NCBI GenBank assembly: GCA_947177115.1
Contig: CAMWTG010000001.1
Span: forward strand, 1-46,386
Length of the DNA: 46,386 nt
From: an uncultured Clostridia bacterium
Lineage (GTDB): Bacteria > Bacillota > Clostridia > Oscillospirales > Oscillospiraceae
Direction of reading: 5' to 3'
In this document: positions 42 through 11,374 of the stretch, piece after piece
How positions within the stretch are numbered: the stretch's first letter is position 1
How the letters are laid out: each line of letters starts with the position of its first letter
The notes under the pieces: model-generated
Told to the model about the DNA's origin: nothing
The model's input: only the letters and a program-made list of their open reading frames with translations
Database searches by the model: none
Position numbers and translations under genes: made by a program

Positions 42-581
42 CTAACGGCGCACTTGGTCTTTGCTTATACCAGCCTCGTCCCCAACACGCTCAACAGATA
101 ACTTCTGTGCAACTTGCGTAGAAGTTAAATCCGTTCGTGCGCCCTGCCGTTTGATGGCCTCCAACTTCATTTTGAGGGCTTTCGCCTTTTCGATAGGCGA
201 GATATTCTCCCGCTGAATATTGGTGTCCACCATAATGATGATTGCGGCATCCCTGTCCAAATCCCGGACAATGACCGGCATGGTTTCCAAACCTACCAAT
301 TCACAGGCTCTTTTGCGCCGGTGTCCAGCCACTATCTCATAGCCGCCCTCATCCCTCGGGCGGGCAATGGCAGGGATAAGCACGCCACGCTCTTTCACAC
401 TGTCCACCGTTTCTTGCATGATTTCATCATCCCGGACAGAGAAGGGATGATCGGGAAAGGGATGCAGTTCTGCCAGAGGAATATTTTGTACCCGCTCTAA
501 TGCGGCGTCCTGTCGGCTTTCCTCCGTGGAGAACAGGTCATCTACTGATGCCAGCTCTACTTTTCTCGCGCTGCTTTTCAA
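42..581 (-). CDS. parB: ParB/Spo0J-family partition protein (ParB N-terminal domain), mobile-element type
   Basis: 179-aa ORF with ParB N-domain signatures (LHPFPDHPFSVRDD; arginine box YEIVAGHRRKRACEL). Its start overlaps the 3' end of parA by 44 nt. It ends at TAG (42-44), only 41 nt from the window edge, and the frame stays open to the edge, so it may be a shortened copy of a longer ParB. Confidence 0.8.
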   Translation of the reverse strand: MKSSARKVELASVDDLFSTEESRQDAALERVQNIPLAELHPFPDHPFSVRDDEIMQETVDSVKERGVLIPAIARPRDEGGYEIVAGHRRKRACELVGLETMPVIVRDLDRDAAIIIMVDTNIQRENISPIEKAKALKMKLEAIKRQGARTDLTSTQVAQKLSVERVGDEAGISKDQVRR

Positions 582-1359
582 TCTTCATCACCTCCTGCGT
601 CAGGCTTTTGTACGCAGCAGCTACTTTCCCTCCGGGGTCATGCGCGAAGATGCTCTTGCCCTCGGCGCTGGTTTCCTTCGCCCGGACAGAGTGAGGGATT
701 TCCGAAGAAAAGACCCTGATCTTGCTGCCATAGGTATCCCGCAGCAAGGCGGCGATTTCTTTTGCAAAGTTCGTCCGGCTGTCCACCATAGCCAGCAGGA
801 TGCCGTCTATCTGGAGTTTCGGATTGATTTGCCGCCGTACCTTTGCCACAGTCTGCAACAGCTGCTCCAGACCCTTCGCCGGAAGGTACTCCGCCTGGAC
901 AGGAATGATGATACGGTTAGCCGCAGCCAGAGCGTTGACGGTAAGCATCCCCAGGGGCGGCTGGCAGTCCAGCAGAATGTGGGTGTACTGGTTCTTCACT
1001 GTGTCCAGATATTGCCGCAGGATGGTTTCCCGGCTCATGGCGTTCACCAGAGATACCTCCATACCGGAGAGCTGGATGTCAGCGGGCATGAGGTCGATAC
1101 CCTCCGGGTGGTGCAGGATGCCCTCGCCCGGAGTGATGGGCTGGTCGTTCAGCACCTTGCCCATCATGTCCGAGAGGGTGACAGGCAGACGGTCCGGCTG
1201 GGGATTGCCCAGGCTGATGGTAAGGCTGGCCTGGGGGTCGCAATCCACCACCAGCACCTTCTTTCCGGCCTGGGCCAGACCAGCAGCCAGATTGACGCAG
1301 CTGGTGGTTTTCGTCACGCCGCCCTTCTGGTTCACAAGGGCGATTACTTGTGCGTTCAT
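538..1359 (-). CDS. parA: ParA/Soj-family partition ATPase
   Basis: 273-aa ORF with deviant Walker A VNQKGGVTKTT and VLVVDCDPQAS. SD GGAGGTG lies 7 nt upstream of the ATG at 1359. Confidence 0.92.
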   Translation of the reverse strand: MNAQVIALVNQKGGVTKTTSCVNLAAGLAQAGKKVLVVDCDPQASLTISLGNPQPDRLPVTLSDMMGKVLNDQPITPGEGILHHPEGIDLMPADIQLSGMEVSLVNAMSRETILRQYLDTVKNQYTHILLDCQPPLGMLTVNALAAANRIIIPVQAEYLPAKGLEQLLQTVAKVRRQINPKLQIDGILLAMVDSRTNFAKEIAALLRDTYGSKIRVFSSEIPHSVRAKETSAEGKSIFAHDPGGKVAAAYKSLTQEVMKIEKQREKSRAGISR

Positions 1360-1428: not shown

Positions 1429-1570
1429 AAAAAAGGACGCTCCATCGCTGGAACGCCCTCAAAACTCTGCTTCAGTATTCAGTTCTGAGTGTAAATACTG
1501 TTGTCCAGATGCCCGCAAACCGTTGGTATCACTGGGTTTTTCGGTAAATCCTATATCGCCACTCGGACCA
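1429..1570. repeat. Direct repeat copy A (element terminus or leader upstream of parA)
   Basis: Manual alignment with 10803-10930. The last 34 nt are identical (tttttcggtaaatcctatatcgccactcggacca), about 70 of the last 80 nt match, and there is one ~13-nt indel. Similarity stops abruptly at 1570/10930. A 14-nt palindrome atcctgtcaaggat (1384-1397) recurs as atccttgtcaggat at 10713-10726. Confidence 0.85.
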
Positions 1571-1692: not shown

Positions 1693-2640
1693 TTATAGGA
1701 TTTTCTCAATCTTCCCGATGAAGTGATAATGGATTTCGATTTTCTGTGTATATAGCCGGCCACTCCTATTTGCTGGATAAACTGCGATCCAGTCGATGAA
1801 TTGCCCGACAATATCCCGCGTTAAAAACTTGATATCAGATGACCTTCCGCCTCCTTCTTAAAATGTGCGAGACCTTCCTGGAACTTCTGGGTGCCTCAAA
1901 TTCTGTCCGGATTTTTTGTTGCGCTTCTTTTAGTTGATCACGCTCCTTAAATAGAAATAGATTGCTGGCAGGACAAATTGCTCGCCATCCATCAACCCCT
2001 TTCACCTTGTCTTCATAAGCTGTAGCCAGACATAATCTGAGCTTGCTCTTGCACTTATCGATGTTCTGTTGCTGCTCTATTAGTTTCTGAATGATTACCT
2101 GCAATTCTATTGACTTTACAATTAAAAATGATAGCAAAGGCTGCTTTCACAATCTCCACAAGAAAGAACTCTGAAAAACAGTAACTGTCTCCCAGAGTTC
2201 TTCCTTGCTTTGTGCAGACCCTATCTGTATTAGATGTGTACTCAGAAAGAGCTTTCGATAATCGTTTCATATATGTCCTGTAAAATAACCATATTTTCAA
2301 CAGCAATCAGCTTGGCTTTGCCAACCAATACTTCGGGGTGAAAGGCAGTATGTACAGAAAGTCCCGAAAATTTTCTAGAAGAGAAAGCAAAAGGCATTCT
2401 CTCCGTCCAGTCCTTTTCCTATCCCAATTCTTGACCGAACAATGCCTCTTAGTCAATTTTTCGACACTCTCCGACAGGCCAATCTTTCGGCCCGTGGCTC
2501 TTTCAGAGGGGAGAACGGAGGCTCTGATAAAATCCCCCCCTACAGACGCAGCACAATGTTTTCGACCTCAGTTCAAAGCTTTTGAACGGTTCTAATCACT
2601 TTTGGCCCATAATATGCAGTCTTCAAGCGGTCACGATAAC
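1693..2640 (-). pseudogene. Decayed large serine recombinase (C-terminal part, multiple frameshifts, catalytic N-domain missing)
   Basis: Successive recombinase-like pieces lie in different minus-strand frames. They are YRDRLKTAYYG (about 2590-2640); a Zn-ribbon-like VCTKQGRTLGDSYCFSEFFLVEIV (ORF 2055-2306); a coiled-coil LATAYEDKVKG...ERDQLKEAQQKI (ORF 1835-2137); and the family-typical C-terminus KFLTRDIVGQFIDWIAVYPANRSGRLYTQKIEIHYHFIGKIEKIL-stop (1693-1857). Recognition is from memory of the family, not a search. Confidence 0.5.
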
Positions 2641-2674
2641 AGGAAGGATATCTCAGCCCAGCCCTCTCCACCTG

Positions 2675-3520
2675 TCAGCCCGACTTCTTCAACGCGAATA
2701 GGTTAACGTTCTGCCGGATATCCGGGCTGTCAAAAAGGTCAATATAGATTTTGCAGCCATAGGCAAGCTTGACTTTGCTTTTTTCCAAAGTCCACAGCAT
2801 GATTTCTAGCAGCTCCATATAAGGGATAAACTGTTGTGGACCAATTCGGGTGATTCCCGCACCCATGAGCGGTATTGCAATTGAGCATCCATTATACTGC
2901 ATTCCAATTTCCCGCCACAAATTGAGAAGACATCCAACATAATCCTCAATCGAGAGACATGCCTGATTATCCTCGTCAAACCGAGAAAACGCCACCAGCA
3001 AATAATCGTTGTATTTAAACGCAGTACCGAGCTTATACTGAACTTTTTTCCCCACCGGTCGCTGGGAATTTTGTTTTGAAATACATCTTTGAAGGTGAGG
3101 ATCGTTTTCCAGCACGGAATCTAGTTTGCTGACTGACCCGTCCAGTTGCTTGAGGAACTTTCCGTTTATGGTATTGGAGGAAATCAGCTTATCATCGACC
3201 AGCGTGTCAAAATATTCGTTGAACGCAATTACCTTCAGAGATGATTTGTCCGCAAAAAGATCTGCATACCGGATGACTACCTCAGTTCCGCATAGGCTGA
3301 ACGACACCTCCTCTGTCTGGTTGGCTCCCCTGTAAACTCCGCAATGGAACGCCAGCAATCCCAGTACAATCACAACCAGAATCCAGCATGGCGGCGTAAC
3401 AAACGGAGATACAATGGTTACGACCAGCCCAACGCCGCCTGCAACTGCATAAACCTGGTTTAGGATTCTGCGATCAAATGGGCCAAGCCTCATATTTTGC
3501 TTTGGGTTTACAGTTCTCAT
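2675..3520 (-). CDS. 2-TM membrane protein with C-terminal ThsA-type Macro domain (Thoeris type II ThsA-like effector candidate)
   Basis: 281 aa. Two hydrophobic helices: VYAVAGGVGLVVTIVSPFV (res 23-41) and CWILVVIVLGLLAFHCGVY (res 45-63). Then a ~200-aa domain with Macro-like landmarks: IRYADLFADKSSLKVIAFNEYFDTLVDDKLISSNTINGKF and CSIAIPLMGAGITRIG (compare the macro motif SIAFPxxGxG). SD GAGGGG lies 9 nt upstream of the ATG at 3520, which is 13 nt after the stop of the upstream gene. Confidence 0.6.
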   Translation of the reverse strand: MRTVNPKQNMRLGPFDRRILNQVYAVAGGVGLVVTIVSPFVTPPCWILVVIVLGLLAFHCGVYRGANQTEEVSFSLCGTEVVIRYADLFADKSSLKVIAFNEYFDTLVDDKLISSNTINGKFLKQLDGSVSKLDSVLENDPHLQRCISKQNSQRPVGKKVQYKLGTAFKYNDYLLVAFSRFDEDNQACLSIEDYVGCLLNLWREIGMQYNGCSIAIPLMGAGITRIGPQQFIPYMELLEIMLWTLEKSKVKLAYGCKIYIDLFDSPDIRQNVNLFALKKSG

Positions 3521-3533
3521 ATATTACAGCCCC

Positions 3534-6500
3534 TCACATTGCAGCCGCTTTTTCGTGATCCGTTTTCACAGCATACTGCTTAATGGCCTTATCAATATTT
3601 TTCTGGAAAATTTGGAACGCCTTTTCTAACTCTTCATCCGCTCGCTTTTCCTCCTCCCCGCTCGCTGCCACTGCTTTATTCGTATAAAACTCCACTGTCC
3701 CATCCTGTTTTACATCAATAGCTGCGAAATTCTCCGGATCATTCAATCTTTCCAACATGAGATAGCCAATCTGATCGTCATGCAGATGGTTAATTCCTCG
3801 GTACTCATTTTTATGCCAGCCGCTTCCATCGTAGTCGTTCGTAATGCCAATAATGGTAAAGCAACATTCTGTGCGGAACAACATTTCCACATCCGAACCG
3901 GCACCTTTGGTGGAAAACAGGTCCTCATGGAATCCGTCGAACAATATTCGTTCCTCTCCATAGCGCTCCTTCAGCTTTTCGGCCAACAGCGCAACACGAG
4001 GGTCGTTGTCATGATGCTTGTAAGAGATGCCCACGTAGTACTTTCGTATTCTTCCCGTTTGAAGCGCCTCCAACTGCTCTAAAATCAGGTTGACCGCTTT
4101 CTCCGCGTCGGAGCACACGTTACCCCGAAGCGCAAGGCCCTCCTTTTGTGAAGACTCTCTGTCCTCTTGGAACTGCCACAGAGCAAACGAATTTTTGTTG
4201 TATTTCTTGGACAGTTCCCAGATACCCTTGCTACAATTGATATATCTGCCGTTGAGCAGATAGACAATCAAGCCCTCAGGCTGTTCCAGCCGAGTGAGTT
4301 GCCCCCAGGTATAGATTTGTACGGTTTTCCCCTGAATTCTCAATCCGCTCACAATCTCTGAAGCGTAGCTTGTGTGGGGAGCACTCAGATCACGGACAAG
4401 GATGACGTCCACAGGTCCGCTGGCATCCATTTTTGCAGACCTGGAGATATAATTCATCATCAGTGGCTGCAAATTTTTGCCCGCATAACCGCTTATCACC
4501 CCGTACTGATCATTCAGCAGGTTCAACAACTCCCGTCCCCACGTGATGTGCCTCTTGCCAGAACCGGTGCCCGATGTTTCAGCTAGGTATTGGGCAATAA
4601 TTCCGCAGAAATTGAACAGGCTTAAATGCAGAACGTTCTTTTCGATGGGAATGCTGGGCTTATATTTGCCCACGATAATTAACTTGATGATTGTGTCATC
4701 GTTCTGACACGCCTCATAAACATTGATGAAGTCCTGGCCCTCTTTCGTGTCCGTATCGCTAAAGTAAATCATAAGTGAACGTGCTTTGTCCTGGGTGTTG
4801 TCAAATTGGAGCAGATAGCAACTGGCACTGGTGCCTCTGTACCTGCGGCAGGTCAGATTGACTACCTTGTTCATAATGTTTTCAAATGCTCTTTCCCATG
4901 CTGCTTTGTTTTCTATCCCATCTTCAAACTGGTACATGGTCAAGAAGACATCTCGCTCATCCTGTTCCAATATCTGATCCTCACAGAGCCTCTCGAGTAG
5001 ATTTGTGAAGCTGTTTTGCAGATAGCGCTGGTCGATGGTACTGACAATCTGATCCCTCATCTCCATGGTGATCGCCTTCTCAAACTCCTCTTCCCGCGCC
5101 TCTTTCAAAAACACAATCGCATTTTCATAATCGTCCGAATGCTTCTTAGCCAACCGCCCAATTTTTAGGATGGTTTTTCGGTCCAGTGTAATAATATGAC
5201 GGTTTGCAATTGGCACTAACTCCCGCCCCATGCCGTATTTAACGCGGGTAGACAGATAGTAAAACTCGTTGGACAGTTTAGTTCCTAAACGATTCTTCGA
5301 GACGTTGATTGCTTTTGACAGTGCTTCAATCTGATAGCTACACACCTCCGCAAGTCGCTCCACATCACCAGTGATGATTACAGCCTTTGACAAGCCCGTC
5401 TCCTTTTTAATTTCTTTGACCGTCTGCCCCTTGGTCCAGTGGAGTAAGATCACAGCCCGGATGAGTGCATTGAGATTTGATGTTGTTGGGGTATCATTGC
5501 CGTTAAAAAACTCCTCCAGCGGGGAGTTTTTCCATACACCATGCTCCTTTTTATACTTGTCAAGGTATCCTAAAAGGGCGCTGACTGTATTGGTAAAACG
5601 GTCGACCCTGTACAGATTGTCCTCCGGTGCGTTGAGGTTTACACCTATTTCAACCTCTGAAGTCAGGCAGATTCGGAATAGGATGTCAAGCAGATATTTG
5701 TCGTTTTGGATCTCTTTCGCAGTCACATCGTATGGTAGACCACCATCTCCTGGAGAGGAAAGGCCATCGCACACCAGATATGTATAGATATCGAAGCATG
5801 TGTGACAAGAGAGAGCATAGGGGGACATACACTCCCCATATTTTCTCAGTTCAGCGGTCTCTGTTTGGGTAAAAGGGTTTTTTCTCAGATTCAACAACTG
5901 AGCCCGTTCCAGCCATTTCAGCATCTCTCTGACACGATCCGTAGAGCGACTTCCTTTTTCACCGGATCGGTCGTTGAGCAACGCATCTTTGGCGTTGCTC
6001 TCTGCGATTGCCTCTATCTTGCAACAATTTCCAAAGGAATGTGCCTCCACCTCTGCAAGCCGGTCGATCAATACCATATTTTGTCCGACCGCACTGAAGC
6101 GGAGATTGGTCATGATATTCAAATAATATGGTGCATGTTGCAACGCGACATCGCTATTATCTGCCTCGTAGCTTGGCAAGGACGATACGATTTCCACCTG
6201 CTCCGGAAAGACATAATAGTGCCAGCAATTGCTGATTTCTTTGGGCGAAACCAGTAAATAACTCTGACCATACGCCTTATCAAATCCAAGTCTACCCGCA
6301 CGACCGATAAAATTTTTATATTCCTGCGGCAACAGTTCATGCTCTGTGTGATCCCCGCGATAGACCGTCTTGTCATAAAGCACCATGATATCGGTAGGCA
6401 TATTCATGCCGATGGTCAAAGTCTCAGTAGCAACGATGATATTGATTGCGCCGTTGGTGTCGGAAAAGTCATTCTCAATCACCTGCCGCAAACTAACGGG

Positions 6501-7610
6501 GAGCGCGGAATTGTGAAACGCGATGCCGTAGGGCAGCATATTTTCCAGCAACTCCATCTGAAACTCATCGTTATCGACCTTCTCTACCTGTTCATAAAGA
6601 GACTTAGGCAGTTCCCGGCGCTCATACAGACCGCTTTGACACAACAGCTTTGCCAGGAATCTTGTCTTATTCCGGCTGTTGGCAAAAATAATAATTTTGC
6701 TTTGCCGGAGCTTTCCTGTGTCCTTGCGCTGGATATCCCTCATAAGACTAACAAGTAGATTGTTTTTATGCTCTGGAACAGAAGCCTGGTCGGGCAACTT
6801 ACTGTCAAGTTCGATATACGCCTCTATAGGATCGTCGACGCCATTGACGGGGGCAAGATTGGCGCTTCCACTATCCCCATGCTCCACATGCTTCCAGCCC
6901 TTCCCGTTTGTGGCAATGATATACTCCTCCAGCGCGACAGGACGCTTCGAATTGCCCAAAACATAACTGACGTTCATCCATTTTCTGAGACTGTTGACCT
7001 TCGTATGATTGGTTGTCAGCCCCATAATGCGGATGTCCTGATACCACTCCAGCACACGTTGAAGCGAGAATTCAAGCTTGGGGCCGCGACCGTTGGTGGA
7101 AAGCATCTGGATTTCGTCCACAATCAATAGTCCACACTTGTCCAATAGGCGGCTTCCATACTGGGCAATTAGTGCAAAAAACTTCTCATACACGATGATT
7201 GCAACGTCATATTCTCCCTGCACCAGATCGCCATCATGGTCTTGATAGTCCGCCGATGCGGCGAAGACCCGCTTTTCGTCCAAATCCCCGCTGAACACCT
7301 TCCAGCGCTCATGGACCATTGCCTTGAGGGGAACCAAGACAATCACTTGACTGCGATGGCCCTGATTGTGGGAAAGGCACGAGATGGCGGCAATTTCCGA
7401 TAGTAGGGTCTTACCGGAAGAGGTGGCACCCTGGATCACGATATTGGAGGTGGTATCGGACCAAAAGTTTGGGTCGTTCAGCACTTCTTTCTGCAGCGCA
7501 GTCAGTTCAAATTTTCGTGTTCCGTTATTTGAAAGACGCTGCTCAACCCGCTGCAGAGTTTCACGCGGAAGCTGGTGTGCGGTCACTAACGCTTCGAACT
7601 CAGTAATCAT
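3534..7610 (-). CDS. Ski2/Hel308-like SF2 helicase fused to a C-terminal TIR-like domain
   Basis: 1358 aa.
- Helicase motifs: I GATSSGKT (7407-7430), II LLIVDEIQ, Ski2-type block GIAFHNSALPVSLRQVIENDFSDTNGAINIIVATETLTIGMNMP, VI NFIGRAGRLG.
- Hel308 ratchet-like LNALIRAVILLHWTKGQTVKEIKKETGLSKAVIITGDVERLAEV.
- C-terminal residues ~1189-1310 (nt ~3684-4046) read as a TIR fold: YYVGISYKHHD / RVALLAEKLKERYG / ILFDGF / GAGSDVEMLFRT / CCFTIIGITNDYDGSGWHKNEYRGI.
- The ATG at 7610 overlaps the upstream stop (ATGA). Confidence 0.85.
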   Translation of the reverse strand: MITEFEALVTAHQLPRETLQRVEQRLSNNGTRKFELTALQKEVLNDPNFWSDTTSNIVIQGATSSGKTLLSEIAAISCLSHNQGHRSQVIVLVPLKAMVHERWKVFSGDLDEKRVFAASADYQDHDGDLVQGEYDVAIIVYEKFFALIAQYGSRLLDKCGLLIVDEIQMLSTNGRGPKLEFSLQRVLEWYQDIRIMGLTTNHTKVNSLRKWMNVSYVLGNSKRPVALEEYIIATNGKGWKHVEHGDSGSANLAPVNGVDDPIEAYIELDSKLPDQASVPEHKNNLLVSLMRDIQRKDTGKLRQSKIIIFANSRNKTRFLAKLLCQSGLYERRELPKSLYEQVEKVDNDEFQMELLENMLPYGIAFHNSALPVSLRQVIENDFSDTNGAINIIVATETLTIGMNMPTDIMVLYDKTVYRGDHTEHELLPQEYKNFIGRAGRLGFDKAYGQSYLLVSPKEISNCWHYYVFPEQVEIVSSLPSYEADNSDVALQHAPYYLNIMTNLRFSAVGQNMVLIDRLAEVEAHSFGNCCKIEAIAESNAKDALLNDRSGEKGSRSTDRVREMLKWLERAQLLNLRKNPFTQTETAELRKYGECMSPYALSCHTCFDIYTYLVCDGLSSPGDGGLPYDVTAKEIQNDKYLLDILFRICLTSEVEIGVNLNAPEDNLYRVDRFTNTVSALLGYLDKYKKEHGVWKNSPLEEFFNGNDTPTTSNLNALIRAVILLHWTKGQTVKEIKKETGLSKAVIITGDVERLAEVCSYQIEALSKAINVSKNRLGTKLSNEFYYLSTRVKYGMGRELVPIANRHIITLDRKTILKIGRLAKKHSDDYENAIVFLKEAREEEFEKAITMEMRDQIVSTIDQRYLQNSFTNLLERLCEDQILEQDERDVFLTMYQFEDGIENKAAWERAFENIMNKVVNLTCRRYRGTSASCYLLQFDNTQDKARSLMIYFSDTDTKEGQDFINVYEACQNDDTIIKLIIVGKYKPSIPIEKNVLHLSLFNFCGIIAQYLAETSGTGSGKRHITWGRELLNLLNDQYGVISGYAGKNLQPLMMNYISRSAKMDASGPVDVILVRDLSAPHTSYASEIVSGLRIQGKTVQIYTWGQLTRLEQPEGLIVYLLNGRYINCSKGIWELSKKYNKNSFALWQFQEDRESSQKEGLALRGNVCSDAEKAVNLILEQLEALQTGRIRKYYVGISYKHHDNDPRVALLAEKLKERYGEERILFDGFHEDLFSTKGAGSDVEMLFRTECCFTIIGITNDYDGSGWHKNEYRGINHLHDDQIGYLMLERLNDPENFAAIDVKQDGTVEFYTNKAVAASGEEEKRADEELEKAFQIFQKNIDKAIKQYAVKTDHEKAAAM

Positions 7611-10351
7611 GTGGATTCCTCATTTCCTTTTTGCATATTGTGGAGAAAGGGCTTCGCCATTTTGTCAATTTTACTTTTCCAATGCGCCGGAAGTACGGGA
7701 AGCTCTTGTAAAATGGCCCACAACTCACGTCGCTCACGCTTGGTAAGGGGCGGTTCATGACTTCGGACAAATTGGGAAAATGGAACTAATGCTGCCAAGA
7801 TGTGGCGGGTACCCGCCGGAGCCGCCTCTAGCTCCAGCAGTTGGAGAACATCCGCTGGAACTCCGTAAAAAAAGCTCTTTGACCAGTGCGTCAACGTGAC
7901 GCAGAACCCCATCGTATTCACGTTCGTATATGCGATGGCTGAGACCACCCCCAAATAGTAACTGAGCTGTTCACATAGCTTTTTGAGCAGTCCATAAGGA
8001 ATTTTAAACGCGTTATAGAGCGTTCGAATCGGAATTCCGGATGAGAAGCAGATGGACACAGCTGCCGTTGTAACCCCTCGCCGCATTATCTTATTGTGTA
8101 CATCCCAACTAGAGTTCAATTTACAATACAACGAATCAGACAAAAGTCCATTGCTTAAAAGCCCCGAGCCAAACAGTTCGTTTTCGTTCGAGGTCCAATC
8201 CCAGAACGTTGATTTTGATGCCACACAGTACTGGGAGCCGTCAAATATAGTGTTAATAATTTCTGCGATTTTACTCAGCCGACAAAGGTGATAAATCAAA
8301 TCAAACAGATAAATGCGCCCGGAGTTGACGCTGGAATCCAGACTCACTTGAACCAAGTCATATGTCTGTAAGGATTCTCCATAGCCTTTGACTACCTCGC
8401 CCGCCGTGTCCAACCGGTAGATTGGCTGGTCAGAAAGAAACAGGTCACACTCTTGCCGTAAAAGATTACGCTTCATCAGCTGATTTAGCATTTCGTCCAA
8501 ATGTTCCAAGCTCCAAGCTCCGCCGGAAAAAATCAACGCCGGCATCGCCTTCACTTCCTGCTCCAGCATTTCACGTGTTTTCTTTGCTCCCGTGCTGAAC
8601 ATATTCAGAAAATACAGTCCACATTGGTCAACATCAATTTGGCGAAGTTGACTTTGCGCCAATGGAATTTCCCTACGATTGGAAATCTTCCTCCATTCCT
8701 TAAGATGGTTTGTATTCATAATCGGATAAATATATCCTCTCTGCTCCCCACTAACACTGTTTGGCCGTAGCCTACCTGCCCGTCCAGCGCAGTTATTATA
8801 TTCATTCATCGTCATATAGCTACCGCCGTTCATCATATCCGCAATAACAACCACGTCAACGCTACTATTGATCCCGAACGCCAGCGTTTCTGTGCAGACG
8901 ACCACCTTGAACTGCCCATCCTCCTGATACAGTAATTCTTCCTCCACATATTCTCGAAACTCCTGGGGCAGGGATGCGCTGTGTATTCCGATTCCGCTTA
9001 AAATGGCCCTACAGGTGTCTTCACTGAGCACCCCATATAATTCATCCGCCATTCCGACCAAATTCATCTGTTCTAATAGCATATCCATATATGTCCGGCC
9101 CGCCGAGGGCGCAGGCGGAATCTTAAGAAGCCCGGAGTTATACAAAGAATCACACAAATTAGCGGCGATTTCATGGACTTCCGTCCGATTATTAATAAAA
9201 ATCAGAATTTTCTGACTGGACTTCAAATGTATCGCACAGATTTCAGCAATTATCTGATTTCTCCGCACCCCCAACGCAAGTGCGGTGTACGCGTCATCTC
9301 TGGCATAATAGAAGAAATCGTGCGTACAGACAACTGCTTTCAGCTGCCCTTCCGGCTTGCTCAGCTCATTCAGCACAAATTCCCGCACAATGGTCGGTAG
9401 ACAGGGGTCTAGGATGCCAATTCCCCTGCAGAGAAAGCGACTAATGGCTGGAGTAAGGGCCCGGTGCAGTTGCGAATCGTGTCCGATGCCAGCCCGAATC
9501 ATAAACTGTTCAAGGGAAATGGGAGGAAAATGCCCAGAAAATTCTGGATTCTCCAATAAAGCTCCGGCAATCTGATCCGGAGCCTCTCCGCCAAAATCGC
9601 AGATGAAAAGACGTGCTTTCCCTTCCAAATGCGCACTGCAGATTTTAGGGAATACATCATGATACCAAAATATATTACCATCTTCTTGGTATAAATAGGA
9701 TTTATTTTTGGCCCGTGCTATGGGCAACGTACTCAGAGGTACAGGACGTTTTTTGTGTTCGACATATGTAAAACCAAACTGCTGGACATAGTTCTGCCAG
9801 TCATAATATGGAGTGGAGAGGACGATGACTCGTTTTTTTGCAGAGAGTGCCGAAATCAGAAGCAGATCGATTTTTATCCCGCGCTCATTGCTGTTTACCA
9901 GCCCAACTTCATCAAAAACAATATAGTCGAAGTACTTCAAAAACGTGTCACTGCCATCAAATAAATATGCCTTTTCATAAATCATTATTACCGCATCAAA
10001 CCCACCTCGGATGACGCTGGCATCATTTTCCCTGTATTCACCTGTGGAAACCGCAATACGCTGTGAACTGTCTATCATGATATTCAGGTCATGCTGCAAC
10101 TCCCTCCCTTTCTGTGCGGCAAGGGCCCGGTACGGCACCAAATACAGCATACGCTTTGAATAATTCGACCTGTTCTGCTCCCACGCGAACAACAACAACG
10201 GGACTAGGGTCTTTCCGGACGATGTGTCGCCGCAAATCCAAAGATTTTTTTGGAGATATGCTTCTTCGCGGGAAAAAATCGCTTCCTGGAGATCTGTAAA
10301 ACGGTCATACCGCAACCGCTGGATCAAGCTAAGTATTTCACAATAACTCAT
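7607..10351 (-). CDS. Ski2/Hel308-like SF2 helicase (first gene of the operon)
   Basis: Motif I ICGDTSSGKT (10208-10231), motif II IVFDEVG, GIGIHSASLPQEFREYVEEELLYQEDGQFKVVVCTETLAFGINSSVDVVVI, and motif VI NCAGRAGR. An upstream degenerate copy of the same block is present (GIGILDPCLPTIVREFVLNELSKPEGQLKAVVCTHDF). I prefer the ATG at 10351 (MSYCEIL..., GGGGA SD-like 6-7 nt upstream). The track ORF extends to a TTG at 10603 that has no SD, and the 84 extra residues look non-protein-like. Confidence 0.85.
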   Translation of the reverse strand: MSYCEILSLIQRLRYDRFTDLQEAIFSREEAYLQKNLWICGDTSSGKTLVPLLLFAWEQNRSNYSKRMLYLVPYRALAAQKGRELQHDLNIMIDSSQRIAVSTGEYRENDASVIRGGFDAVIMIYEKAYLFDGSDTFLKYFDYIVFDEVGLVNSNERGIKIDLLLISALSAKKRVIVLSTPYYDWQNYVQQFGFTYVEHKKRPVPLSTLPIARAKNKSYLYQEDGNIFWYHDVFPKICSAHLEGKARLFICDFGGEAPDQIAGALLENPEFSGHFPPISLEQFMIRAGIGHDSQLHRALTPAISRFLCRGIGILDPCLPTIVREFVLNELSKPEGQLKAVVCTHDFFYYARDDAYTALALGVRRNQIIAEICAIHLKSSQKILIFINNRTEVHEIAANLCDSLYNSGLLKIPPAPSAGRTYMDMLLEQMNLVGMADELYGVLSEDTCRAILSGIGIHSASLPQEFREYVEEELLYQEDGQFKVVVCTETLAFGINSSVDVVVIADMMNGGSYMTMNEYNNCAGRAGRLRPNSVSGEQRGYIYPIMNTNHLKEWRKISNRREIPLAQSQLRQIDVDQCGLYFLNMFSTGAKKTREMLEQEVKAMPALIFSGGAWSLEHLDEMLNQLMKRNLLRQECDLFLSDQPIYRLDTAGEVVKGYGESLQTYDLVQVSLDSSVNSGRIYLFDLIYHLCRLSKIAEIINTIFDGSQYCVASKSTFWDWTSNENELFGSGLLSNGLLSDSLYCKLNSSWDVHNKIMRRGVTTAAVSICFSSGIPIRTLYNAFKIPYGLLKKLCEQLSYYLGVVSAIAYTNVNTMGFCVTLTHWSKSFFYGVPADVLQLLELEAAPAGTRHILAALVPFSQFVRSHEPPLTKRERRELWAILQELPVLPAHWKSKIDKMAKPFLHNMQKGNEEST

Positions 10352-10626
10352 ACAAACATCCCCAATCAAGTGCAGGATAAGCAATGGAGTGCAAGGAGGA
10401 TTTGGACCTGTTTGAATCTTAGCAATATGCTCAACTGAGAGATTTTTTTGCCGAATGACGCAGTTTGATGCAAAAATATCATGTATATTTCCAGTCAAAA
10501 CATCGAAATGTTGAGGAAGAAGGACTGCGGATTGAGCTTGTTGACATTTAAACAAGCCATGGAACTTGTTGATTAGTATATACCCAATTTCAACAAATTT
10601 CAACTAAAACGATGCAAAATTTTGGT

Positions 10627-10802: not shown

Positions 10803-10930
10803 AGAAAAAGCACTCTATCGTTGGAACATTCTCAAAATTCAGTTTTTGGTGTAAATACTGCTGCTTGACTGCCCGCAAACCGTTGATATCACTGAATTTT
10901 TCGGTAAATCCTATATCGCCACTCGGACCA
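10803..10930. repeat. Direct repeat copy B (same orientation as copy A, upstream of the helicase operon)
   Basis: See copy A. It ends at 10930 with the identical 34-nt terminus and is directly fused to the integrase 3' fragment. Confidence 0.85.
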
Positions 10931-11179
10931 TTGGCGATGACAGTAAATCTCCACAAGAAGATCCTGCAGGATGCCGGACTGGAGCACATCCCCTTCCATG
11001 CGTTGAGACACACCTTCGCCACCACCGCCCTCCAAACCAGTATAGATGTGAAAACAGTCTCCAGTATGCTGGGCTACTACTCCGCAGGCTTCACATTGAC
11101 CACTTACGCCCACGCCACCGCCCGGATGCAGGAGGAAGCCGCCAGCAGGATGGGCAGCTACATGGCGCAGAATCTGTAG
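10931..11179 (+). pseudogene. Tyrosine recombinase/integrase, C-terminal ~80-aa fragment only
   Basis: ...LHKKILQDAGLEHIPFHALRHTFATTALQTSIDVKTVSSMLGYYSAGFTLTTYAHATARMQEEAA... carries the HxLRH box and the catalytic Tyr context (TYAH). Everything N-terminal to this is replaced by repeat copy B at 10930. The track ORF 10865-11179 begins at a TTG inside the repeat. Confidence 0.75.
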
Positions 11180-11298: not shown

Positions 11299-11374
11299 TG
11301 GAGCTGGAAATCAGACTCGAACTGACGACCTGCTGATTACGAATCAGCTGCTCTACCAACTGAGCTATTCCAGC
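11299..11374 (-). tRNA. tRNA-Thr (anticodon CGU), CCA encoded
   Basis: Hand-folded cloverleaf: acceptor GCTGGAA/TTCCAGC, D arm GCTC-AGTTGGTA-GAGC, anticodon arm GCTGA-TTCGTAA-TCAGC (CGT), variable AGGTC, T arm GTCAG-TTCGAGT-CTGAT, discriminator T plus CCA. 76 nt. Confidence 0.9.

Follow-up and report, generated by a model that had tools for sequence, protein, structure and literature searches.

How the TIR proteins of Thoeris defence systems sense infection is a largely open question. It is raised in a particular form by a 46,386-nt stretch of DNA from an uncultured Clostridia bacterium of the family Oscillospiraceae (assembly GCA_947177115.1, contig CAMWTG010000001.1, positions 1 to 46,386; hereafter the window), on the minus strand of which three genes, helA, helB and thsA, form a translationally coupled operon in a low-GC island. 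The second gene encodes a superfamily 2 (SF2) helicase fused to a C-terminal TIR domain, the first a further helicase of the same superfamily and the third an effector of the type II Thoeris family. On the basis of sequence comparisons and AlphaFold2 (AF2) models, we consider it probable, at roughly 0.62, that the three genes constitute an abortive-infection cassette, Thoeris-like in kind, in which a helicase pair replaces the small ThsB sensor. The parts of the operon are as follows.

7607..10351, minus strand: helA, 914 amino acids from the ATG at 10351, the first Hel308/Ski2-like SF2 helicase
3534..7610, minus strand: helB, whole open reading frame, the 1358-amino-acid helicase-TIR fusion
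4971..7610, minus strand: helicase core of HelB (residues 1-880), with RecA1, RecA2 and a winged-helix/ratchet-like part
4056..4958, minus strand: middle region of HelB (residues 885-1185), two small domains, M1 and M2, from AF2
3684..4046, minus strand: TIR domain of HelB (residues 1189-1309), from AF2, Foldseek and profile searches
3804..3818, minus strand: WxxxE motif W1265-H-K-N-E1269, from codon translation, carrying the putative catalytic Glu
3540..3659, minus strand: charged C-terminal helix of HelB (residues 1318-1357), from AF2
2675..3520, minus strand: thsA (ThsC in the 2025 nomenclature), 281 amino acids, type II Thoeris effector by Pfam, PADLOC and PDB matches
3332..3463, minus strand: two predicted transmembrane helices of ThsA (residues ~20-63), read from the sequence
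2744..3280, minus strand: Macro domain of ThsA (residues 81-259), from Pfam

The C-terminal domain of HelB

The initial annotation, made from the letters alone, had proposed a TIR-like domain at the C-terminus of the 1358-amino-acid helicase. The interval 3684..4046 maps exactly onto HelB residues 1189-1309, starting RKYYVGISYKHHD, and Foldseek (ranks 1-48) together with a profile search identified it as a real TIR domain. For this analysis, homologous tails were gathered through relatives of the full-length helicase, followed by a BLAST search of the tail against the 120 best of these relatives, and 25 of them were assembled into an alignment (A1). An AF2 model made from this alignment for residues 1176-1358 reached a predicted local distance difference test score (pLDDT) of 85.3 and a predicted template modelling score of 0.83. 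Its elements recur in the order of strands and helices that had been read from the sequence: beta-A (YYVGIS, 1191-1196), alpha-A (1204-1217), a short beta-B at ILFD, alpha-B (1237-1248), beta-C (1249-1256), alpha-C (1264-1273, containing E1269), beta-D (1281-1285) and a long C-terminal helix (1318-1357). The last of these (H143-182 of the model) has block pLDDT values of 77-95 and is poorly conserved and partly absent in relatives; as modelled, it serves as alpha-E or as an extension of the TIR domain.

When the tail model was compared with the PDB by Foldseek, the first 48 matches were all TIR domains (probability 0.72-1.0; target-normalised template modelling score up to 0.65), and the first non-TIR match had a probability of 0.33. 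The matched structures include TLR10, TLR15, MyD88, AbTir, SNC1, RUN1, the SPARTA TIR-APAZ protein, SARM1, TIR-STING and a Bacillus cereus TIR protein. The best matches of the tail are TIR throughout, with no flavodoxin-like family of another kind in first place, and the Glu that the initial annotation had singled out is conserved.

As a single sequence, the HelB tail scores weakly. It matched Pfam TIR_2 at E=0.13 (13 bits against a gathering cutoff of 28); on its own it gave no PADLOC match, an empty word-level homologue search and nothing among PDB sequences beyond chance matches to calmodulin and MAF1. This weak score of the single tail accounts for the lack of any annotation of the domain in the relatives. 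At the level of the family the signal is clearer: nine of the 25 tails in A1 match TIR_2 individually (best E=0.0019), and no other family recurs. A HMMER search with the tail profile over 1.84 billion representative proteins returned 915 matches at E<=1e-3, the top ~60 being helicase tails and those below forming a continuum of other architectures. Among ten of the non-helicase matches (E~1e-13 to 1e-12), eight carry TIR_2 at E<=1e-3 over the same region, four of these above the TIR_2 gathering score; in P0164, a ninth, the match to TIR_2 is at E=0.004. When the tail alignment was used in a further, word-indexed search, the matches were gene fragments only. Compared with PDB sequences, the profile found the plant TIR proteins SNC1 and RPPT as its best meaningful matches; these lie below threshold (SNC1, E=0.078) and were used solely to set the register of the Glu. 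Taken together, sequence profiles and the model agree to a degree well past chance and indicate that the HelB tail is a divergent but genuine TIR domain of the TIR_2 type. When the tail profile was aligned by hhalign with a single canonical ThsB_TIR (PF08937) protein, the probability was 0.25%, which amounts to no similarity, and descent of the tail from the lineage of that ThsB is not supported.

The codons at 3804..3818 read WHKNE, and the Glu proposed as catalytic is E1269, as originally placed. It is present in all 25 aligned tails, where it corresponds to E94 and where the other invariant positions are the G and S of the GISY of beta-A, an L and a C. The wider set of 89 homologous tails gives the same picture, with the Glu and the G and S of GISY in 89/89 and the D of ILFD in 88/89. 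E1269 aligns with the Glu of WCLNE/WCLDE in SNC1 and RPPT, which is the catalytic residue of those plant TIR NADases. Such strict conservation of the putative catalytic Glu argues for catalysis over scaffolding.

The effector gene downstream of helB

The three genes are closely joined. The stop codon of helA overlaps the start codon of helB in the sequence ATGA, and a spacer of 13 nt with a GAGGGG ribosome-binding site separates the helB stop codon from thsA. The thsA product matches Pfam ThsA_Macro at 1.3e-48, the PADLOC model ThsA1 at 1.1e-74 over its full length and, among experimental structures, the ThsA Macro domains 8v6q, 9uuz and 8r66 (1e-44 to 1e-43). Type II ThsA consists of an N-terminus with two transmembrane segments and a C-terminal Macro domain (10.1101/2024.01.03.573942), and two hydrophobic helices, VYAVAGGVGLVVTIVSPFV and CWILVVIVLGLLAFHCGVY, are likewise found at the N-terminus of the window protein. 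In type II Thoeris, histidine-ADP-ribose (His-ADPR) made by the TIR protein of the system activates this effector, and membrane damage follows.

The binding pocket was mapped by alignment to 8r66 and with the published residue list for ThsA_amylo. Of the six His-ADPR contacts of ThsA_amylo, the window protein shares D100, N133, S194 and R240; Y277 is replaced conservatively by Phe, and Q135 by Lys. R240 of ThsA_amylo holds the histidine carboxylate, and the contacts of Q135 are water-mediated only; in the homologue 8v6q, this position is Leu. By these comparisons, thsA of the window encodes a full-length effector of the type II Thoeris family, and most of its His-ADPR pocket is conserved.

The helicases and the middle region of HelB

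The assignment of the carrier protein to the Ski2/Hel308 type was borne out by PDB and NCBIfam comparisons, in which HelB is closest to ASCC3, Hel308, Brr2 and Ski2. The PDB matches to these four range from 5e-31 to 1e-14, with HamB (8vx9) at 4e-9. HelB matches Pfam DEAD (8.9e-18), Helicase_C (1e-8) and archaeal helicase domain 4 (E=0.0037), and its motifs I, II and VI read GATSSGKT, VDEIQ and GRAGRLG. HelA matches DEAD (2.9e-15), Helicase_C (5.9e-8) and NCBIfam Hel308 (3e-22), with the motifs GDTSSGKT, FDEVG and GRAGRL. As the NCBIfam Hel308 scores of the two helicases are 143 and 78 bits against an equivalog cutoff of 1200 bits, neither is a Hel308 equivalog. The best PADLOC matches of both are the HamB and PDC-M23B models.

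Between the helicase core and the TIR domain, AF2 (alignment A3, pLDDT 78) places two small domains. M1 (~920-1013) has the order alpha-beta-beta-beta-alpha-beta; its topology would be compatible with a PD-(D/E)xK nuclease, but no acidic or Lys column is conserved, and an active nuclease was rejected. M2 (~1069-1166) has a flavodoxin-like alpha/beta fold. Its WG and SxSL motifs are almost invariant, and the preceding linker contains two invariant residues, D1034 and G1037. The rhythm of strands and helices in M2 resembles that of a TIR domain, but hhalign against the TIR profile gave a probability below 1%, and a tandem TIR arrangement was rejected on the evidence so far. No family was found for M1 or M2, and most of what Foldseek returned for a 474-residue multi-domain model were spurious matches spanning two domains. 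M1 and M2 are candidates for holding the TIR domain in check.

Gene order and exchange of partners in the family

The full-length HelB sequence has 635 relatives at E<=1e-3, mostly of 1320-1400 amino acids and annotated just as DEAD, Helicase_C or ResIII. The initial annotation had called a fusion of this kind unusual. This holds for the literature searched but not for sequence space, where the C-termini of the 120 closest helicase relatives comprise 89 TIR tails and 15 Ser/Thr kinases, with 16 proteins having no tail. The hosts are gut and rumen Clostridia (Lachnospiraceae, Oscillospiraceae, Ruminococcus, Faecalibacterium and Gemmiger) and Selenomonadaceae.

Related genomic loci were found with a four-sequence full-length alignment. 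The order helA, helB-TIR, thsA, with overlapping or abutting genes, recurs at the loci L014, L035, L019 and L033 and in the relatives P0002 and P0004, whose genomic surroundings are unrelated. P0002 is 49% identical and lies beside a serine recombinase, and P0004 is 34% identical and lies between a ribose operon and a uracil-DNA glycosylase gene. On a neighbour-joining tree of the TIR tails, the loci with the three-gene order belong to three separate clades.

Other partners surround the same core elsewhere. In a sister clade, a 611-amino-acid protein is encoded directly upstream of helA (L013:441-2327 and L027:5467-7353); it matches TIR_2 at 1.5e-9, the STALD/SLOG Pfam family at 7e-4 and the PADLOC ThsA STALD models at ~1e-5, and looks like a ThsA-like receptor-effector with a TIR domain in place of SIR2. 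Downstream, the loci of this clade encode a 560-amino-acid coiled-coil protein and a 451-amino-acid protein. Another clade (L010:4374-5522, L017:8424-9943 and L050:4044-5298) shows the four-gene order 276-amino-acid protein, RyR-domain protein, helA, helB-TIR. The first of these proteins is 68-74% identical between the loci and has a long, Gly/Ala-rich hydrophobic C-terminus of the glycine-zipper membrane protein kind; the second is ~93-103 amino acids long and matches the RyR domain at E~1e-33. A late-2025 systematic survey lists Macro and SLOG among the established receptors of TIR-made ADP-ribose (ADPR) derivatives, and an RyR-like phage protein has been reported to bind or sequester molecules of the cyclic ADPR type (preprint 10.64898/2026.06.04.730250). 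A diffusible TIR product would be expected to leave such a pattern, in which a single helicase-TIR core is combined with three different partners that bind ADPR ligands (Macro, SLOG and RyR).

The kinase-tailed sister helicases (L011 and L012 (P0005), and 15 of the 120 relatives) have the same length as HelB, with PF00069/PF07714 in place of the TIR domain, and are preceded by a 530-amino-acid protein without a family match. They are possibly a kinase-output version of the two-helicase sensor. The exchange of TIR for kinase marks the C-terminus of HelB as an exchangeable output position, which fits a design of sensor plus output. At one further locus, a canonical type II Thoeris system (ThsA_Macro and ThsB_TIR; L008:1-1278 and 2457-3032) and a SLATT gene lie ~4 kb from the helicase-TIR locus, a defence-island context; the contig ends directly after helB.

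With somewhat less confidence than for the cassette itself, and at slightly under even odds, we suggest that helA/helB-TIR represents a large unannotated family of TIR signalling systems in which the sensor is explicit: synthesis of the messenger would be gated directly by two helicases that track nucleic acid, the receptors would differ between lineages (Macro-transmembrane, TIR-STALD/SLOG or RyR plus glycine-zipper proteins), and the output would sometimes be a kinase. Firmicutes of the human gut and the rumen commonly carry the family, which Pfam, PADLOC and NCBIfam label just "DEAD/DEAH helicase". Since annotation is blind to the TIR tail, defence censuses probably score such loci as orphan ThsA or miss them. 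The late-2025 survey of Thoeris and TIR signalling describes 29 effector types and nowhere mentions helicases, and in the literature searched, the coverage of which was incomplete so that an earlier mention may exist, we found no description of a helicase-TIR fusion, of Hel308 with TIR or of an operon of ThsA with a helicase. The proposed Thoeris-type TIR immunity with a fused two-helicase sensor looks like an undescribed architecture.

Proposed mechanism

The reading of helA, helB-TIR and thsA as a Thoeris-like cassette is supported by the folds, the conserved catalytic residues, the operon coupling, the synteny and the receptor-pocket residues. The idea put forward in the initial annotation, that signal production might be under the control of the helicase, is strengthened by the adjacent Thoeris effector, a gene that the initial annotation had left unmentioned, and by the second helicase of the operon. 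HelA and HelB, produced in fixed proportion from overlapping genes, would form a complex that loads onto, or tracks along, a phage-specific nucleic-acid structure with the help of ATP. By analogy with SPARTA, engagement of the nucleic acid would then free, cluster or pair the C-terminal TIR domain of HelB. Judging from the receptor, the TIR domain would use E1269 to cleave nicotinamide adenine dinucleotide (NAD+) into an ADPR-derived messenger, most likely His-ADPR or a close relative, with histidine as co-substrate beside NAD+ should the chemistry be the one that the receptor suggests. Going by the characterised type II Thoeris systems to which ThsA is homologous, the messenger would bind the Macro domain of ThsA and lead to membrane damage or growth arrest.

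The covalent link between the TIR domain and a pair of ATP-driven helicases makes the sensing module explicit and opens it to biochemical tests on defined substrates of DNA or RNA. If the mechanism is true, this would be the first Thoeris-type pathway whose infection sensor, and hence the class of its trigger (a nucleic-acid structure), can be read from sequence, and the family may produce messengers not yet described. A single helicase scaffold with Macro, SLOG or RyR partners, or with a kinase, would also provide a natural experiment on the exchange of sensor, messenger and receptor.

Several points weigh against this mechanism. Descent of the tail from the ThsB lineage that was compared is not supported, and therefore the synthesis of His-ADPR cannot be inferred from the ancestry of the TIR domain. 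Most of the family lacks the Trp of WxxxE, which is found in 4/89 tails, all of the window's own clade. The histidine of DExH is replaced in both helicases (DEIQ in HelB, DEVG in HelA). An interaction between HelA and HelB and a role for nucleic acid are suggested by gene overlap and family membership, and the chemistry of the TIR domain and the anti-phage role of the cassette are predictions. Moreover, no recognisable receptor gene adjoins the helicase-TIR genes at L015, L016, L020-L022, L031 and P0003/L057, and therefore, for some of the family at least, the TIR domain may itself be the end of the pathway, an effector that depletes NAD+.

Alternative explanations

This last point leads to the main alternative, which we nevertheless hold to be unlikely for the window: the TIR domain is itself the terminal effector, TIR domains cluster once the helicases are activated so that NAD+ is depleted in the manner of SPARTA or TIR-STING, and ThsA is accessory or separately triggered. 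No ThsA adjoins helicase-TIR at about two thirds of the loci sampled, several lack any obvious partner, SPARTA TIR-APAZ chains are among the Foldseek matches, and Yirmiya et al. caution that some TIR proteins in Thoeris-like operons may deplete NAD+. However, a Macro receptor would be pointless if NAD+ were merely destroyed, and thsA of the window is translationally coupled to helB in a gene order that was acquired or retained in three separate clades; the ligand-binding STALD/SLOG and RyR partners at other loci are in turn what a diffusible signal predicts. A TIR domain that burns NAD+ may thus operate at the partner-less loci, but it leaves the tightly coupled Macro receptor of the window unexplained.

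A second alternative divides the operon into two unrelated neighbours, a Hachiman-like helicase system and a remnant of type II Thoeris without thsB, the tail of HelB being a non-catalytic domain for oligomerisation or scaffolding. Neither a stand-alone thsB nor a separate TIR open reading frame exists in the island, as such a remnant would have it, the HamB and PDC-M23B models are the best PADLOC matches of both helicases, and the animal TIR proteins TLR and MyD88 head the Foldseek list. The similarity to HamB is nonetheless confined to the helicase core (E~1e-24 for the 1358-amino-acid protein), and Pfam and PADLOC found no HamA/DUF1837 nuclease gene in the operon or island. An orphan ThsA would also not remain overlapped with helB, or 13 nt from it, in relatives of 34-49% identity at different sites, and the invariance of the Glu in 89/89 tails speaks for catalysis more than for a scaffold; we regard this explanation as highly improbable.

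The least probable explanation is that the genes have no part in immunity and are either a maintenance or addiction module, given their position between parAB and recombinase remnants in an integrative element at a tRNA-Thr gene, or a pair of DNA-repair helicases whose NAD-binding tail is regulatory, given that Hel308-type enzymes are repair helicases; it is countered by the membership of ThsA (Macro and transmembrane parts) in a characterised family of cell-killing immune effectors, by the defence island with canonical type II Thoeris and SLATT around the relative at L008, by the low G + C content relative to the host and the patchy distribution typical of defence genes, and by a Hel308 score of 143 bits where the cutoff is 1200.

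Comparison with known systems

The window system shares with type II Thoeris an effector of the same family, with two transmembrane segments and a ThsA Macro domain whose pocket is largely kept, and a TIR domain with the Glu encoded directly upstream. It differs in that the TIR domain is the last ~170 amino acids of a 1358-amino-acid SF2 helicase and not a small stand-alone ThsB, in that three genes including a second helicase take the place of a two-gene operon, and in that the TIR domain resembles TIR_2, with no similarity to the one ThsB_TIR/PF08937 protein compared. With SPARTA, the short prokaryotic Argonaute system with TIR-APAZ, it has in common a nucleic-acid-recognising machine physically joined to a TIR domain, which in SPARTA is switched on by target engagement. 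The sensor of SPARTA, however, is a guide-loaded Argonaute and its TIR domain is a terminal NAD+ depleter, whereas the presumed sensor of the window is an ATP-driven helicase pair and a dedicated Macro-transmembrane receptor follows.

Hachiman, which consists of the HamA nuclease and HamB, likewise has a Ski2/Hel308-like helicase as presumed sensor of the state of DNA, and HamB models are among the best PADLOC matches of the window helicases. The window differs in having two helicases and a fused TIR domain (a kinase in the sisters) in place of HamA/DUF1837, and it has no similarity to Hachiman outside the core of the helicase. SIR2-HerA (Nezha) and related systems are alike in concept, as an ATP-dependent nucleic-acid motor is combined with an NAD+-consuming enzyme; but HerA is a hexameric FtsK/HerA ATPase and not an SF2 helicase, the SIR2 NADase is on a separate polypeptide, and there is no downstream signal receptor.

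Genomic setting of the cassette

The G + C content is 43-50% across the ~9 kb cassette block, compared with ~55-65% in the rest of the contig. The remaining features around the operon are listed below.

10575..10603, minus strand: promoter-like TTGAAA-17-TATACT upstream of helA, from a consensus scan, 10/12 matches
1472..1570, no strand: 99-nt direct repeat, copy 1, from repeat comparison
10832..10930, no strand: 99-nt direct repeat, copy 2, from repeat comparison

The promoter-like site is a pattern match only, such sites being no commoner in the region than in shuffled sequence. The helA open reading frame, when delimited mechanically, extends to a TTG at 10603, and the promoter-like site falls inside this extension. 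The likely start of helA is the ATG at 10351, which has GGGGA upstream and gives a length that fits the partners of 744-907 amino acids in relatives. The two copies of the 99-nt direct repeat flank the three-gene cassette; they are 85% identical and 9360 nt apart, and each precedes an operon on the minus strand (parAB and helA, respectively). The repeat has no family match in Rfam, and could be a duplicated promoter or leader, or a recombination scar.

Near the cassette, a tRNA-Thr(CGT) gene with a strong terminator is found at 11299-11374 (minus strand), together with a truncated tyrosine integrase at 10865-11179 (plus strand), of which the last ~56 amino acids of PF00589 remain; parA (538-1359, minus strand) and parB (42-581, minus strand) are on the other side. 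The cassette resides in a decayed integrative or mobile element at the tRNA-Thr gene. An identical cassette is present in NCBI assembly GCA_029067425.1 (L058), where a 46-amino-acid DUF4368 remnant, corresponding to the C-terminus of a serine recombinase, lies between thsA and parA.

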